Part shown: piece after piece, positions 2 to 17,255 of the stretch
How the letters are laid out: each line of letters begins with the position of its first letter
How positions within the stretch are numbered: the stretch's first letter is position 1
Virus record (IMG/VR): IMGVR_UViG_3300041407_000052
Span: 1 to 28,347 of that record
Origin: a virus
Lineage: Duplodnaviria; Heunggongvirae; Uroviricota; Caudoviricetes
Reading direction: 5' to 3' (one strand)
Length of the DNA stretch: 28,347 bases
Made by a program: the position numbers and the translations under genes
Notes under the pieces: generated by a model
The model's input: only the letters and a program-made list of their open reading frames with translations
The model's database searches: none
Told to the model about the DNA's origin: nothing

Positions 2-487
2 CAGGAGTTTTATTCTCTTGGTGAGGATGGTATTTATTTAAAGAAATGGAGACGAGGTTTTCCAAGAAGTGCCGTAGGGAATCGTGTAGGTAACACGCAC
101 CATTCTGGTTACAAGTATGTAAAGATAGGCGGTAAATTATATGGTGAGCATCAACTTGTTTGGCTTATGACTCATGGTGTTCTTCCCATCGGGGAACTTG
201 ATCACGAGGACACTGATAAGACAAATAACAATATAAGCAATTTGAGGTTGTCAACTCGACGACAAAACACAACCAATAGAAAAGGTTGGTCTAAATCTGG
301 TTTCAAAGGTGTTTACCCTAATAAACGTGGGTTACCGTGGAATGCAAGTATACGAATAAACGGTAGTAACAATAATCTTGGTAATTTTATACTTGTTGAA
401 GATGCAGCAAAAGCGTATGATATAGCGGCAATAAAAGCTAACGGGCTATTTGCCAAACTTAATTTTGAAAGGGAGAGTTACACATGA
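2..487 (+). CDS. HNH homing endonuclease with C-terminal AP2-like DNA-binding domain (5' truncated by window edge)
   Basis: The frame is open from position 2 (QEFYSLGEDG...EHQLVWLMTHG). HNH motif DHEDTDKTNNNISNLR is followed by AP2-type SGFKGVY...WNASIRING...LGNF...AAKAYD. Confidence 0.85.
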   Translation, partial: QEFYSLGEDGIYLKKWRRGFPRSAVGNRVGNTHHSGYKYVKIGGKLYGEHQLVWLMTHGVLPIGELDHEDTDKTNNNISNLRLSTRRQNTTNRKGWSKSGFKGVYPNKRGLPWNASIRINGSNNNLGNFILVEDAAKAYDIAAIKANGLFAKLNFERESYT

Positions 488-4855: not shown

Positions 4856-5049
4856 TTAGCACGATAAAAAGAATCCAATATGGTGATACTGGATCTGGTG
4901 ATTATGCTGAAGTCACAATTGATTCGATTGAGAATCATGCTATTCTTTTGGGCAATGATAGTATCTCAAGTCGTAAAAAGGTTATATACGCAAGTGAAGT
5001 AGATTCACTTATTGAAGCATTGCAACACCTGAAATATAATTATCTTTGA
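4852..5049 (+). CDS. Hypothetical protein
   Basis: ORF track; ATGA overlap. Confidence 0.65.
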   Translation: MISTIKRIQYGDTGSGDYAEVTIDSIENHAILLGNDSISSRKKVIYASEVDSLIEALQHLKYNYL

Positions 5050-5608: not shown

Positions 5609-6027
5609 TGTTACAACACAAGATGATCAAACCTTACATGGAAACAGCTCGGGCATTTTCTCAGCTGTCTCATGCCAAACGTAAAAGGGTTGGTGCAATT
5701 GCTGTAACGCCACAAGATGTTGTAATCTATTCATGGAACGGAAGACCTTCAGGTGATGATAATTGTTGTGAGTTAACACCTGAACTAACGCACCCTGAAG
5801 TTTTACATGCTGAAGCAAATATTGTATCCAAGGCCGCTCGTGAAGGTATCTCATTGAAAGATGCAGATATCTATGTGACGCTCAGTCCTTGTCTACCTTG
5901 CTCTTTACAGTTGTTCCAAGCCGGTGTAAAGACAGTGACATACGATGAGGAGTACAGATTAACAGATGGTATTGATTTCCTAAAGCGTAAGCAGGTTTCA
6001 GTAATCAAGTATGAGGAGAGTGTATGA
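5608..6027 (+). CDS. dCMP deaminase (cytidine deaminase superfamily)
   Basis: Zinc motifs HAEAN and SPCLPCS; N-terminal S.AKRKRVGA and WNG.PSG. Confidence 0.92.
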   Translation: MLQHKMIKPYMETARAFSQLSHAKRKRVGAIAVTPQDVVIYSWNGRPSGDDNCCELTPELTHPEVLHAEANIVSKAAREGISLKDADIYVTLSPCLPCSLQLFQAGVKTVTYDEEYRLTDGIDFLKRKQVSVIKYEESV

Positions 6028-6221
6028 GGATTTTAGTTGATAAGTTGTATGGTGATGCGACAGTCTCTATCTACAATAAGAATGGTGAACTGATTCACAC
6101 TGAAGGGTTTTTCGGTAAGTGTGGCTCTGCATATATCCGACAAATTCCAGTTGTAGAAGTTGAATACGGACATTGCCAAGCTGTGTTCTCTGGTGAGTTT
6201 GAATACAAGGTGGTTGCATGA
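6024..6221 (+). CDS. Hypothetical protein
   Basis: ORF track; ATGA overlap and GAGGAG RBS. Confidence 0.7.
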   Translation: MRILVDKLYGDATVSIYNKNGELIHTEGFFGKCGSAYIRQIPVVEVEYGHCQAVFSGEFEYKVVA

Positions 6222-6406
6222 GTTGTAACTATCGGATTGTCAGAGAAGAATTCAAAAATGGTCGCGTAACTTTCAAGATTGAAAAGAAAGTCGAACATGT
6301 TGAGCGTTGGGTTCATCTAACCAACCGTGACACAATTGGAGATGCTAGATCGGTGATTGCAACTTTGATTGGTGAGGAACTAGTTAGTAGTGAGGTGGTT
6401 GAATGA
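6218..6406 (+). CDS. Hypothetical protein
   Basis: ORF track; ATGA overlap. Confidence 0.68.
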   Translation: MSCNYRIVREEFKNGRVTFKIEKKVEHVERWVHLTNRDTIGDARSVIATLIGEELVSSEVVE

Positions 6407-6651
6407 TCGTTAAGCAAGAAGATATCAATGCAATGTTTGAAGCTGCTTCTCAACAAGAGAATGATGTTGAGAAGCGTGAACAACTTCGCAATCAGGCTAT
6501 GAAGTTTCTGTACGACAACCAAGAGTGTTATGTCGCCCAATGGATTCTGCAAAACCCATATGCAAACATTGGTCATTATGCTCTGAAGTTTGTTTACAAT
6601 GATGCTTCCCTTTTGGGTTACACAGTTACAATGGAGAAGATTGATGTTTGA
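6403..6651 (+). CDS. Hypothetical protein
   Basis: ORF track; ATGA overlap and GAGG RBS. Confidence 0.7.
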   Translation: MIVKQEDINAMFEAASQQENDVEKREQLRNQAMKFLYDNQECYVAQWILQNPYANIGHYALKFVYNDASLLGYTVTMEKIDV

Positions 6652-7900
6652 GAAGAATCTGTTCGGTTTGGAAAAGAATGGTGATGTAAAGGTTTGGTTG
6701 ATCAGAATTGAGGACGTGTTCTGTGATCACCCTGAAGTTATGTTGGTCATCACCCATGGTAAAGAAGGTGGTAAACTCACAGTTAAGAATGAGAGCGTGA
6801 CTCAAGGTAAGCAAGGTCGTACTGTTTACGAACAAGCTGTTTTGCAAGCTGAAGCTCGTATCAAGAAACAATTAGCTAAGAACTATCGTGAGAACCGTGA
6901 CGACCTGTTCGAAGAACTACCCATTATTGCCATGCTTGCTAAAGATGCATCTATGGAGAAACTGGAAAAGGTTAAGTTCAAGTACAAAGAAGGCATACTG
7001 GTTTCTGACAAGCTTGACGGTTTCCGCTGCCTTGCTAAATGCTTTATGTCTCCACACTTCGGTATTAAAACAGTTACGATTGAGTCTCGCACAGGTGAGA
7101 TTTACAAAGTTCCACACATCGAAGAAGAACTTCTTGGGTTCATGGAGCCGGGCGATATCCTCGACGGTGAGCTTTACGTACATGGTCCTGTACTAGAAGA
7201 AATCTCCAGTGCTGTAAAGCGGACAGATCCACAAGAAAAGATCAACGAGACATACCTTAAAGTTGCAAAGCAACTGAATAAACATGGTCCTGATAGTCCT
7301 GAATACGCAAAAGCAAAAACAGAGTATGCTCAAGCAAATGAAATTGCTAAGATTCGTGGCCAGCTTGAGTTCCGTGTATTCGACTTCGTTACTCTGTATG
7401 ATCCATTTGTGGTTCGTCTCGACAAACTGAATAAGTATGCGGATGAGCGATTCATTGACGGTGGTAAAGTATTCAAAGTTGCGTACATTACTGTCTTCTC
7501 GAAAGAGGAACTTCGTGCTGCCCACAAAGATGCTGTAGAACGTGGTTTCGAAGGTGTAATGGTTCGTACACTTGAGGGTGAATACGAGAGCGGTAAGCGT
7601 TCAGGCGGACTGTGGAAGTACAAAGAGTTCATGGATGCAGAATTCCAAATCTTGGATATTGTACCTGACAAACAAGGTCATGCTGTGTTCGTGCTTCGTA
7701 ACAACAAGAATGGTAATGTCTTTCAGTGTGTTATGGGTGATATGGAACAACGTGCTTACTACCTTGCAAACAAGCATCTTTTTATCGGTAAGTGGTTGAT
7801 GGTTAAGTTCCAGTCTCTATACAAAAAGACATTGATTCCGCAATTTCCGACTGGTATCATGTTCCGTGAATGCGATGAACAAGGGAATCCTGTTGAATGA
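6644..7900 (+). CDS. lig: ATP-dependent DNA ligase with WGR-like N-terminal domain
   Basis: Motif I DKLDGFR, III LDGELY, IIIa FRVFD, IV EGVMVR, V WKYK, OB-fold VKFQ...PQFP. ATG 6644 has a GGAG RBS (the track start 6590 is an over-extension). Confidence 0.95.
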   Translation: MFEKNLFGLEKNGDVKVWLIRIEDVFCDHPEVMLVITHGKEGGKLTVKNESVTQGKQGRTVYEQAVLQAEARIKKQLAKNYRENRDDLFEELPIIAMLAKDASMEKLEKVKFKYKEGILVSDKLDGFRCLAKCFMSPHFGIKTVTIESRTGEIYKVPHIEEELLGFMEPGDILDGELYVHGPVLEEISSAVKRTDPQEKINETYLKVAKQLNKHGPDSPEYAKAKTEYAQANEIAKIRGQLEFRVFDFVTLYDPFVVRLDKLNKYADERFIDGGKVFKVAYITVFSKEELRAAHKDAVERGFEGVMVRTLEGEYESGKRSGGLWKYKEFMDAEFQILDIVPDKQGHAVFVLRNNKNGNVFQCVMGDMEQRAYYLANKHLFIGKWLMVKFQSLYKKTLIPQFPTGIMFRECDEQGNPVE

Positions 7901-8427
7901 TTAATCTACTTGAGCATACAAGTTCGTCATACGGACCACGCACTTGGCACAATGCAGCTCAAGGTGTAACTCTTGCTATTGCCGTGGACTTTTCCACGGC
8001 TGGTGAGAAGCTTACAACTAAAGCAGCACAGAAGAATGGTATTGTCCATCTCGATGCTCGCGTGTTTGCAACCGATTGGATACCAGCAAGTCGTGAGTTG
8101 TATAAACTGCTGAGAGACAGTGATTGTCGAATAGTAAACGTTGCAGGCAACGGGATTTACACGTATAGTAAGCATGGTTTCGACCAACAAGGTGTTAACC
8201 ACATGGTTCAACAAGTACTCAAGCAAGTACACGAGCATTGGAAGCTTGACCATGTGGTAAGTGGTGGTCAGACAGGTGCAGACCTTGCGGGGTTGATTGC
8301 AGCAGCTAAGCTTGACATTGACTGCACAGGTATGTGGCCTAAAGGCTACAAGATGAGATTCGAAAATGGTGTTGACAAGGACCACACACCTAGTCAGATT
8401 ATGGATATAATCAATAAATACGCATGA
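7897..8427 (+). CDS. SLOG superfamily (YpsA/'MoCo carrier'-like) nucleotide-binding protein
   Basis: Contains SGGQTGAD.AGL.AA, Y..RT..N, G..LT and VNVAGN. The SGGQTG block is C-terminal rather than N-terminal. Confidence 0.72.
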   Translation: MINLLEHTSSSYGPRTWHNAAQGVTLAIAVDFSTAGEKLTTKAAQKNGIVHLDARVFATDWIPASRELYKLLRDSDCRIVNVAGNGIYTYSKHGFDQQGVNHMVQQVLKQVHEHWKLDHVVSGGQTGADLAGLIAAAKLDIDCTGMWPKGYKMRFENGVDKDHTPSQIMDIINKYA

Positions 8428-8432
8428 GGTAA

Positions 8433-9053
8433 ATGATGTTCATTTTTGGTAATGTAACAGCACATGGGGTTGTCTATTTGTATCCAGACGTACCACCAAG
8501 TAACCTAGTATGGACAGACCCAAAAGGTCATACAAACTACTGGTGTTCTGTGCAAGGTGATACCTCTGGTTCAAGTAGCAGTCCGCGTACAGAGAGTCGT
8601 CAGACACTTCCTGAATCTGGGGTACCTTACAACTGGCGAGTTGGTGAGTCACTACATGCGATGTTGGGTACGGTAAGAGTTGAATTGGCACCGAGTAGTG
8701 GTAAAGTAATCGTCGGTCAAATCCACGCACACAAAGCACCAAACCCATTTGTGATGGTTACATGGTGGAATGGAGTTGCAAGGATCGACCTGAGACTTAC
8801 ACCAACCAGCTCAGCAAGTAAAGTATTGTCTGTTCCATGTGCACTTGGTGAATCATTTGAATACAGTTTGGTATTGAGTCCAGACGGTATTCTACAGGTT
8901 GCGATCAATGAATCATATTACGTGCTTGACGTAAACCCTCTTTGGGATGAATATCCGTTCTACTTCAAAGCAGGTGCTTACGTGATTGACAATGATGGAC
9001 CTGAAACCGAAGGTGGTTGGGTTGTATACGAAAAGTTTGGTGTGATTAGTTAA
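8433..9053 (+). CDS. Polysaccharide lyase family 7 (alginate lyase), no signal peptide
   Basis: All three PL7 conserved regions are present: SPRTESRQ (R.ELR-like), IVGQIHA (QIH) and FYFKAGAY. Confidence 0.88.
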   Translation: MMFIFGNVTAHGVVYLYPDVPPSNLVWTDPKGHTNYWCSVQGDTSGSSSSPRTESRQTLPESGVPYNWRVGESLHAMLGTVRVELAPSSGKVIVGQIHAHKAPNPFVMVTWWNGVARIDLRLTPTSSASKVLSVPCALGESFEYSLVLSPDGILQVAINESYYVLDVNPLWDEYPFYFKAGAYVIDNDGPETEGGWVVYEKFGVIS

Positions 9054-9063
9054 AGGAGATAAC

Positions 9064-9792
9064 ATGCGTAAAATTATAGGATCGTGCGGACACATCGCAC
9101 AGTATGATCTGCGAGATTTCAAAGGTCGTGTACTCGCTGTGAGTGATTTGCACGGTCACTATGACTTGTTGCATGAATCTCTCAATGAAGTTGCGTTCAA
9201 CGCACAAACAGACTTGTTGTTCGTCATTGGTGATTGGTGTGACCGAGGACCAGACAGTAAACATGTTCTAGATTATGTCAATGAGCCATGGATTCACAGT
9301 CTATGCGGTAACCATGATCAGATGTTTATTGACGGGTTCGATGCTCATTGGCATCCGAACAACAGAAGTGTACTTTGTTTGAAAGCACATGGTGGTGATT
9401 GGATCTGGTCACTGACTGATCTTGAGAAGATACTGATTCATGAAGCATTCAGTGCAATGCCACTTGGTATTGAATTGCTGTTGCCACATGGTCGCAAAGT
9501 TGGACTTGTTCATGCTGAAGTCCCATACCATGACTGGGATAAATGGGTTGACATCGTTGAGACAGAACGCGATCATACACAGGCTGTTGCACAGTGGTCC
9601 AGACGTTGGTATGACTCGCAATTCAAGGGTCAAGTGAAAGGTGTTGATTTTGTTATTGCTGGTCACACACCAACCGACAGCGGTAATATTGAACGTCTTG
9701 GTAACATGCTGTTTATAGACGGTGGTAGTTTCTTTAACGATAAAGTCAACTTGGTTGAGATTGATGACAAACTGTTTAGGAGTATGAAATGA
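9064..9792 (+). CDS. Calcineurin-like Ser/Thr protein phosphatase (lambda NinI/PphA type)
   Basis: Metallophosphoesterase motifs DLHG, GDWCDRG, GNHD, HAEVP, GHTP and IDGG. Confidence 0.92.
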   Translation: MRKIIGSCGHIAQYDLRDFKGRVLAVSDLHGHYDLLHESLNEVAFNAQTDLLFVIGDWCDRGPDSKHVLDYVNEPWIHSLCGNHDQMFIDGFDAHWHPNNRSVLCLKAHGGDWIWSLTDLEKILIHEAFSAMPLGIELLLPHGRKVGLVHAEVPYHDWDKWVDIVETERDHTQAVAQWSRRWYDSQFKGQVKGVDFVIAGHTPTDSGNIERLGNMLFIDGGSFFNDKVNLVEIDDKLFRSMK

Positions 9793-9971
9793 GTTTGGTA
9801 GGAGAAGTACAAAGTCCAGCGGTTAAGAGTCAGATGTTTAAAAGTCTGGAGGCTGCATTGGACTACTGCCTATTTGTCAAACCTGATGAACTTGCGATTA
9901 AGCGAGTGTTCAACGGTGTTGAAGCCATTGGTTGGCAATTACACTTTACAGGTAGCGAGGGACAACGATGA
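9789..9971 (+). CDS. Hypothetical protein
   Basis: ORF track; ATGA overlap and AGGAG RBS. Confidence 0.65.
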   Translation: MSLVGEVQSPAVKSQMFKSLEAALDYCLFVKPDELAIKRVFNGVEAIGWQLHFTGSEGQR

Positions 9972-10126
9972 AACTAGTACAACCTGATGGTCAGGATAAG
10001 AATGTGTTCAACAACTTCAAACGAACACTTCGTGATATCGACAAATTGACGAATGAACAACTTGCACTTATCAATTTTGAAGTATTTCACACTGCACGCA
10101 AACGTGGAGCGGTTGAACCAGAATGA
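9968..10126 (+). CDS. Hypothetical protein (52 aa, MKLVQPDGQDK...)
   Basis: Translated by hand; ATGA overlaps at both ends and GAGG RBS. Confidence 0.7.
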   Translation: MKLVQPDGQDKNVFNNFKRTLRDIDKLTNEQLALINFEVFHTARKRGAVEPE

Positions 10127-10506
10127 ACATTGAATACACTAACGACTTAACGGTTCGTAAGTGTCGCGAGTTCCCCAGCCACGTATTCGTCTTCGGTGAT
10201 AACCTCGCTGGATACGGTACAGCTGGGCAAGCGTGTATCCGAAAAGAACCCAATGCATTTGGAATACCAACCAAACGTTATCCATCAATGAAAGCTGGTT
10301 CATTCTTCACAGATAGTCCTTGTGAGTTTGAACATGTGAAAGAGGCTTTGAGACGGTTATTCGTTTTAGCAAAGCGACATACGATTGTGTTCCCACATAA
10401 TGGGATTGGAACTGGTATGGCTAAGATGCGTGAAACGAGTCCGAAGTTGTTTGCCGAGATGAATGACATTCTACTAAAGCATTTTGGAGTGAGGAATGGA
10501 CAGTGA
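10123..10506 (+). CDS. Conserved phage protein of the FVFG(D/S)N...G.AGQA family
   Basis: FVFGDNL.G.GTAGQA.IR.EPNAFGIPTK and FP.NGIGTG.A are recognisable from widespread phage proteins; the function is not established. Confidence 0.75.
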   Translation: MNIEYTNDLTVRKCREFPSHVFVFGDNLAGYGTAGQACIRKEPNAFGIPTKRYPSMKAGSFFTDSPCEFEHVKEALRRLFVLAKRHTIVFPHNGIGTGMAKMRETSPKLFAEMNDILLKHFGVRNGQ

Positions 10507-11027
10507 ACCTTATCAAACATCTACTGACACGGCATTATGATCCAAGTCGGTATGTAAATCAGGTATTGGACGTTGACAACAACGTCCTCACCGTGTATCT
10601 TACCAATCTTGCTGGTCAATTCGCTGGATTTCAACAGTACCGACCTGAAGTTGAATTTAAGAGGTTAAATTTACCAAATGAAGCAAGATATTTTACATAC
10701 AGTCAACGTGGTGTATCGGCCTGTTGGGGACTGGAAACGCTTGACACGAATAAAAAAGACCTATACCTTGTTGAAGGGATCTTCAAAGCGTCTGCATTAC
10801 ATATGCTTGGACATAATGCTTTAGCGTTGTTGACAGCTAACCCTAAACCAATGAAGAGTTGGTTGCACACGTTACCATACAATCTGATTGGAGTGGGTGA
10901 CGGTGATAAAGCTGGTAGTTGGATGCCAAAAATAGCAGGACAAGGTTTCCAGTCTGATTTGGACTTGGATGAATACACGCTAGAAGAACTTAGCGAATTA
11001 CTGGAGAGTAAACCATGGAAAAGATGA
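10503..11027 (+). CDS. Small TOPRIM-domain protein (primase-like)
   Basis: YLVEGIFKA (TOPRIM glutamate) and GDGD.AG (DxD); no zinc-binding domain visible. GTG start overlaps the upstream stop; GAGG RBS. Confidence 0.68.
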   Translation: MNLIKHLLTRHYDPSRYVNQVLDVDNNVLTVYLTNLAGQFAGFQQYRPEVEFKRLNLPNEARYFTYSQRGVSACWGLETLDTNKKDLYLVEGIFKASALHMLGHNALALLTANPKPMKSWLHTLPYNLIGVGDGDKAGSWMPKIAGQGFQSDLDLDEYTLEELSELLESKPWKR

Positions 11028-11245
11028 AGAACCTATTCAACAAACTGTCCTCAAATCAGATTGCACACCTTAAAACAATCAGTTGGATCGCTGGGGTGAT
11101 CTTTACTATCTGGTTGGTGGGGTTCATGCTTGTCAACTTTACAGACCTAACGATTATCACAATTATATTGGCTGTATTTGGTTTCTTTGTATACAATACT
11201 TACATTGCTGTATACACTCTTGTCAAACATAAGAGCAGCAAGTGA
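11024..11245 (+). CDS. Membrane protein with 2 predicted TM helices
   Basis: Two hydrophobic stretches, WIAGVIFTIWLVGFMLV and LTIITIILAVFGFFVY. Confidence 0.7.
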   Translation: MKNLFNKLSSNQIAHLKTISWIAGVIFTIWLVGFMLVNFTDLTIITIILAVFGFFVYNTYIAVYTLVKHKSSK

Positions 11246-11421
11246 TATGTCCTGAATGTTATAACAATGAAATCAAATATTGGCGTGATCAACCGATGAA
11301 TGAAGAGATTCGAAAGGAACTAACGTTCCAACGACACGCCAATATTTACTATTACACTCTGGATGAGGCAATGACCATCTGGGGAACACAAATTGAAGAG
11401 GAATATTATGTACAAGATTAA
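11242..11421 (+). CDS. Hypothetical protein (59 aa, starts M/V-I-CPEC)
   Basis: Translated by hand; GTGA overlap with the upstream gene. Confidence 0.6.
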   Translation: MICPECYNNEIKYWRDQPMNEEIRKELTFQRHANIYYYTLDEAMTIWGTQIEEEYYVQD

Positions 11422-11608
11422 ATTGGATGACACCTGTACGGTCTTTAGTCTGTATCAGGATGACGTATTCATGGGCACTCAGACTTGGATTGGTCAGCAC
11501 TTGCTCAACATTGGTAAACACCACGGTATCGACTTGAGCAAGTGTGAGAGTGAAAGTCACATGCTTTCAATTCTTGAATGTTATATTGACATTGAGATTG
11601 TTGACTAA
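11408..11608 (+). CDS. Hypothetical protein (MYKIKLDD...)
   Basis: ORF track 11393..11608; ATG 11408 has a GAGG RBS. Confidence 0.68.
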   Translation: MYKIKLDDTCTVFSLYQDDVFMGTQTWIGQHLLNIGKHHGIDLSKCESESHMLSILECYIDIEIVD

Positions 11609-11796
11609 TGGACACTGTAGATAAATATATCAGTCGTAAGTTTTGGCTTGCTGTTGTGTTCCAAACAGTATTCACGATCATGTTGTGCTACGGTAAACTT
11701 CCGGTTTCTGCATTTGAGAACCTGACGTACATGTTGCTTGGTGGTTACTTTATTAGTAATGTCACTCAGAAGATATTCGTTAAGGAAATTGTCTAA
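11608..11796 (+). CDS. Small 2-TM membrane protein, possibly holin-like
   Basis: SRKFW followed by two hydrophobic helices and a charged C-terminus; no endolysin nearby. Confidence 0.6.
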   Translation: MDTVDKYISRKFWLAVVFQTVFTIMLCYGKLPVSAFENLTYMLLGGYFISNVTQKIFVKEIV

Positions 11797-12257
11797 TGGT
11801 ATTCTGGAAGACTAAGAAGATCAATCTTGGTGATCAGTCGGTTACCGAACTTACTATTCTCGAATGGAAGCGATTCTTCAGCATTAAGTTGTTCCATTTC
11901 CATAAAACAGATGGTGATCAAGATCGATTCCACACTCACGCCTTCAACGCCGTGAGCATTCTGCTTTCTGGTGATTACATGGAAGAGATTGTTGACCAAG
12001 GTCAGATTGTTCCACTGAAACGCAGTCGTAAACGCTTCCTGTTCATTCCGAAAGATAGTTTTCATCGTATTACCAAGAGTACAGGTTGTCGTACATTGCT
12101 GATCACTGGTCCATGGGGTAAAGAGTTCAAAGAACTTCGCAAGATAAGCGGAACACTTGAACATCCACAAGGAGCAGGTGATTGGCAAGTAGTTGTTTGT
12201 GGTGCACAACGAGTGGACCAACGTTCCGAAGGTATAATTAGACTGGAGAGTATTTAA
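11796..12257 (+). CDS. Cupin-fold protein
   Basis: Cupin metal motif FHTHAF.....LSG.Y.EE ... FHRI ... TLLITGP. Confidence 0.7.
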   Translation: MVFWKTKKINLGDQSVTELTILEWKRFFSIKLFHFHKTDGDQDRFHTHAFNAVSILLSGDYMEEIVDQGQIVPLKRSRKRFLFIPKDSFHRITKSTGCRTLLITGPWGKEFKELRKISGTLEHPQGAGDWQVVVCGAQRVDQRSEGIIRLESI

Positions 12258-17036: not shown

Positions 17037-17239
17037 TGACTGATGTACAACGATTTGCACAATCATCATACAGCAATGAACTGTATCCAGCATCAGGCAG
17101 TGACGCACATTACATGTTCTACAAAGATCATACTGTCATTGTCAGCCTGTTACGTGAGCAACTAGCTTGGATGGAAAGACAGTTGACGTTAAGTAACACA
17201 CTTCTCACACAAGCATTGACAACCAATCAGCCTCGCTAA
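17036..17239 (+). CDS. Hypothetical protein; last gene of the + strand block
   Basis: ORF track 17027..17239; TGATG coupling; ends at the terminator. Confidence 0.68.
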   Translation: MTDVQRFAQSSYSNELYPASGSDAHYMFYKDHTVIVSLLREQLAWMERQLTLSNTLLTQALTTNQPR

Positions 17240-17255
17240 CGCGGGGTTTTCTTTT
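17230..17255 (+). terminator. Rho-independent terminator closing the + strand block
   Basis: Hairpin CCTCGC-TAAC-GCGGGG followed by TTTTCTTTT. Confidence 0.85.

Follow-up and report, generated by a model that had tools for sequence, protein, structure and literature searches.

The gene examined here lies on the plus strand between a gene for a cpYpsA-type SLOG protein and a gene for a NinI-like Ser/Thr metallophosphatase (Table 1), in a window of 28,347 nucleotides that makes up the first 28 kb of a 104,392-bp IMG/VR virus record, complete by CheckV and with a GC content of 42%. Both flanking genes had been named in an earlier reading made from the sequence without database searches (below, the sequence-only reading), and both have been identified by Pfam and PHROG matches. 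The same reading assigned to the gene a GAGG ribosome-binding site of its own, which is present and overlaps the stop codon of the SLOG gene. The open reading frame comprises 206 aa from its first ATG, or 205 aa if translation starts at position 8436. In a metagenomic relative (L030), ATA replaces the first ATG and the second ATG alone is retained; the conserved start is therefore probably 8436 rather than 8433, with a 6-nt spacer after GAGG, a motif that is invariant in L030 and in another relative, L029.

The spacers around the lyase gene are only 5 nt and 10 nt long, and no promoter-like site or terminator was seen inside them. The nearest good sigma-70-like match upstream of the gene is a candidate start of the transcription unit that would include the lyase, while a terminator-like hairpin closes the plus-strand gene block. 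Such promoter assignments are weak because the sigma-70 scan returned fewer sites than its shuffled controls (32 versus 44).

Table 1. Features of the locus and of the remaining genome (positions in the virus record; the window spans 1 to 28,347)
Feature	Position	Strand	Basis or remark
HNH homing-endonuclease-like ORF	2-487	+	directly upstream of the NAMPT gene; cut by the record start
Sigma-70-like promoter match, 10/12	5012..5040	+	consensus match only; nearest good one upstream of the lyase
ATP-dependent DNA ligase	6590-7900	+	
Upstream neighbour, cpYpsA-type SLOG protein	7897..8427	+	PF12694 E=5e-13, phrog_10774 E=3e-68
Ribosome-binding site GAGG	8426..8429	+	read from the sequence; 6 nt before ATG 8436
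CDS of predicted PL7 (PA1167-like) polysaccharide lyase	8433..9053	+	PF08787, 1vav match, AlphaFold2 model, start-codon comparison
Downstream neighbour, NinI-like Ser/Thr metallophosphatase	9064..9792	+	PF00149 E=1e-13, phrog_246 E=9e-61
Primase-like ORF, 174 aa	10503-11027	+	C-terminal half of phrog_849 only
Alpha/beta hydrolase, 268 aa	13781-14587	+	PF00561 E=9e-26; PHROG "esterase/lipase"
Terminator-like hairpin, 8 pairs then T run	17229..17248	+	closes the plus-strand gene block; consensus match only
Full primase-helicase	55256-57166		
Phage_lysozyme endolysin	70914-71285	minus	beside the tail fibre gene
Tail fibre, 943 aa	72061-74892	minus	no Pfam depolymerase domain

Genomic setting and insertion of the lyase gene

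The record describes a siphovirus whose tail tip is lambda-like. The tape measure, the M/L/K-I/J-like proteins, and the 943-aa fibre are encoded at 72-86 kb, and the head genes (major head protein, protease, portal, and TerL) at 89-96 kb, all on the minus strand. Pfam detects no depolymerase domain in the tail fibre. GH19 and Amidase_2 searches found nothing; the proposal that the lyase replaces an endolysin in the lysis cassette was rejected, as a Phage_lysozyme endolysin is encoded far from the lyase. No integrase was found in the 104-kb genome, which is taken to be of a virulent type, and a tRNA scan of the window gave no tRNA gene. The phage is uncultured and represented by metagenomic sequence only. 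Among public sequencing runs, the only one with the full sequence is a rhizosphere metagenome, which is possibly its source, and no RNA run containing it is listed there.

The lyase gene is separated from the tail and endolysin genes by about 62 kb and lies on the opposite strand, inside a tightly packed plus-strand block of accessory nucleotide and DNA-metabolism genes. This block encodes NAMPT, an HD hydrolase, dCMP deaminase, an ATP-dependent ligase, SLOG, the phosphatase, DUF7831, a primase-like fragment, and an alpha/beta hydrolase. The initial description of the gene as placed "among replication genes" is loose, since the polymerase and the primase-helicase are encoded at 52-57 kb of the genome.

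Several other genes of the block have features of their own. The alpha/beta hydrolase, taken for PhaZ in the sequence-only reading, is encoded about 5 kb downstream of the lyase and could be a PHA depolymerase or, for instance, a polysaccharide-deacetylating esterase able to assist the lyase on O-acetylated alginate. The 174-aa ORF matches only profile positions 148-338 of the DNA primase family phrog_849 and, given the full primase-helicase elsewhere in the genome, might represent a primase domain that has been split off or persists as a relic; L029 and L030 both conserve it, with dN/dS of about 0.13-0.15. The ligase is just 47-49% identical to its counterparts in L029 and L030, while the adjoining SLOG protein is 82-99% identical between the window and these relatives, which suggests that recombination beside the site of the lyase insertion has exchanged the ligase gene.

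The nearest cultured relatives are the Pseudomonas phages vB_PpS_SYP and phiPMW (Plaisancevirus). NAMPT of the window is 59% identical to both, and its SLOG protein is 70.5% identical to that of SYP and 55.6% to that of phiPMW. Megablast of positions 6000-12000 against the phage collection gave no match, so a close cultured relative is absent at the DNA level. A Pseudomonas host for the 104-kb phage is supported by these nearest cultured relatives, together with the restriction of the lyase family to Pseudomonas phages and prophages (see below).

The SLOG and phosphatase genes of both SYP and phiPMW overlap by 8 nt, with no lyase gene between the two; the lyase gene is thus an accessory gene that was inserted. 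The order SLOG-lyase-phosphatase is common to the window and three metagenomic relatives (L009/L029 and L030), whose lyases are, respectively, 88% and 79% identical to that of the window at the amino acid level. The abutting flanks in the cultured phages and the order shared by the relatives indicate a clean insertion into the lineage followed by inheritance. At 0.17 versus L029 and 0.14 versus L030, the dN/dS of the lyase gene is comparable to that of the flanking genes (range 0.02-0.29), which means that it evolves under purifying selection.

Fold, active site, and N-terminus of the predicted lyase

The encoded protein (22.6 kDa, pI about 5.0) matches the Pfam family PF08787 (Alginate_lyase2) with E=6e-29 and 101.9 bits, well above the cut-off of 29.7. 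The match consists of one domain (residues 28-201) that starts at profile position 37, in line with the single-domain PL7 lyase originally proposed; PHROGs has no family for this protein. The proposed PL7 motifs (R.E.R, QIH, and YFKAG.Y) are also in place, as RTESR at residue 52, QIH at residue 96, and YFKAGAY at residue 177, and the two short motifs occurred together by chance in only 9 of 200,000 composition-preserving shuffles. The best solved relative by sequence is PA1167 from P. aeruginosa (PDB 1vav, E=4e-24), followed by A1-II' of Sphingomonas (E about 1e-14), with the glucuronan lyase 7nde from Trichoderma far behind (E=4e-4).

An AlphaFold2 model built with 27 homologues is all-beta and has a mean pLDDT of 93.3 and pTM of 0.90. 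PA1167 is again the top match in Foldseek (1vav, TMq 0.85), with 222 aligned columns covering the whole protein; A1-II' follows, and the list also contains 2z42 (TMq 0.82), more than 40 other PL7 structures at probability 1.00, and the glucuronan lyase 7nde (TMq 0.79). Taken together, the model and the Foldseek matches place the protein in the PL7 fold (beta-jelly-roll / beta-sandwich). In a viral structure library, close matches were found only among giant-virus PL7 proteins.

The residues that form the PL7 active site (R..E..R, Q-I-H, and Y-F-K-A-G-x-Y, with the His as a base and the second Tyr as an acid) are all present. When the protein is aligned to 2cws by HMMER, with one constant offset of 79, H98 and Y183 fall on H191 and Y284 of A1-II', the two positions that carry the mutations of PDB entries 2zaa and 2zac; by that offset, Q96, R52, and R56 fall on positions 189, 146, and 150. 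R52, R56, Q96, H98, K179, and Y183 are invariant in the alignment of 27 homologues, which extends down to 41% identity. H98 is thus predicted to be the base and Y183 the acid, and R52, R56, Q96, and K179 would bind the carboxylate. The third motif runs on to YVIDN rather than to Y.Q, and PA1167 reads YLQDN at this position. With the family, fold, and catalytic residues considered together, the gene very probably encodes an active PL7 lyase.

No signal peptide or lipobox was recognized by simple rules, as a basic n-region and a hydrophobic core are absent: the first 10 residues contain no K/R, and the maximum Kyte-Doolittle value over a 15-residue window is 1.38. A conserved FGNITAHG sequence begins 1-4 residues past Met in all 117 homologues, and therefore none of them carries a leader. 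The PA1167-like sequence of P. mangrovi (L026) is leaderless too. By these rules, the protein does not fall among the exported (Sec/Tat or lipoprotein) PL7 enzymes, and the missing signal peptide noted in the sequence-only reading is borne out by hydropathy, N-terminal charge, and the 117 homologues alike.

Foldseek aligns the whole lyase to PA1167, and a virion anchor domain is therefore absent, in agreement with the initial reading, the single domain spanning the entire protein; in the AlphaFold2 model, the N-terminus is part of the jelly roll and not an anchor. Fusions were looked for by a profile search of 1.84 billion representatives, which returned 1,456 PL7 relatives. The strongest matches with the clade-specific N-terminus, aligned from profile position 1-2 (P0081, P0105, and P0109), are 210-229 aa long. 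The long high-scoring matches examined aligned only from profile position 23-33 onward and proved to be double-PL7 or carrier-domain proteins that fit the Pfam model from its first position, unlike members of the phage clade. No clade member fused to a virion protein was found in this search, and the lyase stands alone in every homologue found, just as the gene of the window had been described as not fused to a tail protein. A 206-aa jelly roll without a beta-helix lacks the architecture of a tail-spike depolymerase, which combines an N-terminal particle-binding domain with a trimeric beta-helix catalytic domain. The lack of an anchor or adaptor domain and the location of the gene outside the structural module are characteristic of soluble depolymerases. 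A conserved disulfide as a hint of extracellular action was considered and rejected, there being no obligatory Cys pair: C38 hardly varies, but C136 is missing from the prophage clade.

Spread of the gene among Pseudomonas phages

A search of 5.8 billion protein clusters yielded the 117 homologues, nearly all of 202-217 aa and most on unnamed contigs of phage size. The named ones are Pseudomonas proteins annotated as "polysaccharide lyase family 7 protein", with 55-60% identity. Three homologues belong to cultured phages: that of phiK7A1 is 73% identical, annotated as PL7, and encoded between primase/helicase and exonuclease; that of Arace01 (Zuri/N4-like) is 53% identical and annotated as hypothetical, with the UniRef label "Alginate lyase 2 domain-containing protein"; and that of Ep020 (Otagovirus) is 52% identical. 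The cultured carriers of the gene infect P. syringae or Pseudomonas sp.

Gene tables and clustering of flanking genes for 44 loci place the PL7 gene in at least eight genome contexts of Pseudomonas phages, both lytic and temperate. These are the 104-kb type of the window, phiK7A1-like phages, a ~162-kb type with a T4 Y00F-family gene, a ~207-kb jumbo type (L013/L014), a 116-165-kb type, N4-like phages, Ep020, and temperate phages. In most lineages, the gene is found among early or DNA-metabolism genes, and no partner export gene next to it is conserved across the eight contexts. In the jumbo type (L013/L014, contigs of ~52 kb and ~207 kb), the PL7 gene (6001-6624) lies directly after three tail-fibre-like (Phage_tail_beta) genes on the same strand, with a gap of 27 nt; no other context gives a hint of late expression or of association with the virion.

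In the temperate phages, the gene occupies an accessory region just upstream of excisionase/integrase and is co-oriented with ERF, SSB, xis, and int. Within this integrase-proximal region of L015 (1354-8978) and L017 (5240-11181), it is found beside the defence-like genes HEPN_AbiU2, PIN_12, and TIR_2. Prophage status is shown directly only for L015 and L017 and for loci that have the flanks of these two or come from IMG/VR viral contigs; tblastn of the L015/L017 integrase, excisionase, ERF, and holin against the bacterial loci L018-L026 gave a weak integrase match in L021 only, and Pfam matches of the neighbouring genes in L019/L020 added nothing to this. A host survey of one-genome-per-species bacterial contigs produced nine matches, eight of them in Pseudomonas and the ninth binned to Flavihumibacter. 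The latter contig (L018, JAKFDZ010000088.1, 8.6 kb, 40% GC) carries a PL7 gene that is 72% identical, together with many small same-strand ORFs, and is more reminiscent of phage DNA placed in the wrong bin than of a Bacteroidota sequence.

According to a maximum-likelihood tree, the lytic-phage copies enclose a single clade (100/100) of high-GC bacterial and prophage copies; the type represented by the window forms another clade (99/96), and the PA1167-like outgroup (L026) is on a very long branch outside the phage clade. Judging from this tree, the gene is part of a PL7 lineage that phages carry and that is passed among those of Pseudomonas, rather than a host PA1167 gene acquired recently.

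Possible functions and known counterparts

The interpretation favoured here, with some reserve, is that the gene encodes a soluble PL7 alginate lyase that accumulates in the infected cell, is freed at lysis, and thins the alginate matrix for the progeny. As an accessory gene between SLOG and the phosphatase of a phiPMW/SYP-like siphophage of rhizosphere Pseudomonas, it would be co-transcribed with early or middle metabolic genes. Its product would be a catalytically competent endolytic uronan lyase of about 22.6 kDa that cleaves its substrate by beta-elimination, in all likelihood an alginate lyase of the kind represented by PA1167 / A1-II'. Owing to the absence of a leader, the lyase would stay in the cytoplasm until holin-endolysin lysis sets it free; outside the cell, it would depolymerize the alginate matrix around neighbouring cells and debris, so that progeny could diffuse and adsorb more readily. 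We infer the alginate substrate, the timing of expression, the absence from the virion, the release at lysis, and the fitness benefit. The reading of the gene as encoding a non-virion soluble PL7 lyase, as first put forward, is supported in that it agrees with everything computable.

Depolymerases that are soluble and set free at lysis form an established class (PMC5380687). The alginate of Pseudomonas is a polymer of M/MG type that carries acetyl groups (PMC8829089, PMC7287115), and PA1167 is described as degrading polyMG in vitro (PMC8829089, citing Yamasaki 2004). Certain observations count against the release of an alginate lyase at lysis. O-acetylation of bacterial alginate hinders some PL7 enzymes, A1-II preferring non-acetylated alginate (PMC7287115), and no settled function is assigned to PA1167 and PA1784, the host homologues that lack a leader (PMC8829089). 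Placement among early or middle genes would be an odd design for an enzyme that acts at lysis only, and the acidic pI, the inclusion of glucuronan lyases such as 7nde in PL7, and the adjacency to tail-fibre genes in L013, which leaves room for virion association in some lineages, are to be counted on the same side.

It has to be considered whether the lyase might instead be a virion-associated accessory enzyme, docked non-covalently on the tail or a fibre and acting at adsorption. The position of the L013/L014 gene just downstream of fibre genes is in keeping with this, as are the historical alginate lyases of 30-37 kDa obtained from preparations of Azotobacter and Pseudomonas phages (PMC5380687). 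Such a location is unlikely, however, in view of the distance and opposite orientation of the lyase and tail genes in the present genome, the lack of an adaptor or anchor domain in a protein whose N-terminus is inside the jelly roll, and the early or DNA-metabolism surroundings of the gene in most lineages.

The last-mentioned feature would suit an enzyme that acts inside the infected cell or its envelope, for example, by clearing or blocking nascent host alginate so that lysis and release proceed unhindered. Early or middle operons in several lineages and the co-orientation with recombination and integration genes in the temperate relatives speak for such an activity, and the leaderless PA1167 and PA1784 have been suggested to serve as a fail-safe backup of periplasmic AlgL (PMC8829089). 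This explanation is not a likely one either, since no route is known by which a protein without a leader could reach the periplasm, where the alginate polymer exists, and a conserved adjacent export partner is absent across the eight contexts. Polymerization of alginate is coupled to its export by Alg8/Alg44. A broader proposal, that the whole phage PL7 clade represents early-expressed leaderless enzymes with an intracellular or envelope role beyond matrix clearing at lysis, for instance dismantling the alginate output of the infected cell or acting on a novel cytoplasmic uronate substrate, seems doubtful. If true, it would account for the repeated occurrence of the gene in early or recombination operons of Pseudomonas phages that are unrelated, lytic as well as temperate, and it would also throw light on the leaderless host paralogues PA1167 and PA1784.

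An active PL7 lyase might also be directed at a polyuronide other than alginate, e.g., beta-1,4-glucuronan or an unknown acidic EPS or capsule. The family does include glucuronan lyases, and the N-terminal ~30 residues of the phage clade are divergent, with the Pfam match beginning inside the profile and YVIDN in place of Y.Q. At the same time, the alginate lyases PA1167 and A1-II' are by far the nearest among the characterized relatives, PA1167 itself reads YLQDN at the end of the third motif, and the hosts are Pseudomonas, whose uronan EPS is alginate; a different substrate is accordingly rather improbable. Finally, although the closest cultured relatives do without the gene, a selectively neutral passenger with no role for the phage is very improbable given dN/dS of 0.14-0.17, catalytic residues invariant over a deep radiation, and the persistence of the gene in phage genomes of at least eight types.

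As a concept, the soluble phage depolymerase has been known for long, and the PL7 gene family has already been annotated (phiK7A1, GenBank), so that a stand-alone phage PL7 gene is less unusual than the sequence-only reading held: the family is widespread. No paper characterizing any member of the clade was found in the literature searched. What is new here is the clean insertion relative to SYP/phiPMW, the corrected start codon, and the family-wide picture of at least eight contexts, stand-alone and leaderless homologues, and prophage copies nested in the phage radiation. The phage lyase opens no new mechanism. Its interest lies rather in the fact that phage alginate lyases are represented in the searchable literature by uncloned activities only (PT-6 and the Azotobacter phage), while a 2026 review refers to phage-derived alginate lyases as an unexplored source (PMC13709232). 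The clade offers concrete and compact single-domain candidates of about 205 aa. Since Pseudomonas hosts have shaped their evolution, these enzymes may be tolerant of bacterial alginate that is O-acetylated and rich in M/MG, a property that matters for anti-biofilm use. Repeated insertion into at least eight genome architectures would make free, non-virion matrix degradation, as predicted here, a common strategy of soil and rhizosphere Pseudomonas phages.

Among known proteins, PA1167 (1VAV), which prefers polyMG, is the closest counterpart. It shares with the phage lyase the jelly roll, size, single-domain organization, absence of a leader, and all catalytic motifs, including the Y.(Q/I)DN ending. 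The identity is only about 29-39%, however, and PA1167 is encoded at a chromosomal locus, whereas the lyase is phage-borne and its clade has an N-terminus of its own (FGNITAHG..Y..P..PP) that is unmatched by the Pfam model. In A1-II' of Sphingomonas sp. A1 (2CWS, 2ZAA, 2ZAC), the residues H191, Y284, Q189, R146, R150, and K280 correspond to H98, Y183, Q96, R52, R56, and K179 of the lyase, but the identity is about 25-27% and the enzyme comes from a bacterial alginate-assimilation system. phiK7A1_116 (QNR53904.1, "polysaccharide lyase family 7 protein") is of equal length, similarly stand-alone, and encoded among DNA-replication genes; it differs in belonging to a ~99-kb phage related to Otagovirus-like phages and in occupying another insertion site.

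The alginate lyases of the Pseudomonas phage PT-6 and of an Azotobacter vinelandii phage are comparable in the proposed mode of action and substrate (PMC5380687), but they are larger (30-37 kDa versus 22.6 kDa) and have no assigned gene sequence. Tail-spike depolymerases, such as the beta-helix pectate-lyase-like proteins of the Pseudomonas phages phi15 and AF, likewise degrade a host exopolysaccharide. Being large trimers in the virion that are anchored by their N-terminus, they differ from the lyase described here, a small anchorless jelly roll encoded outside the structural module.
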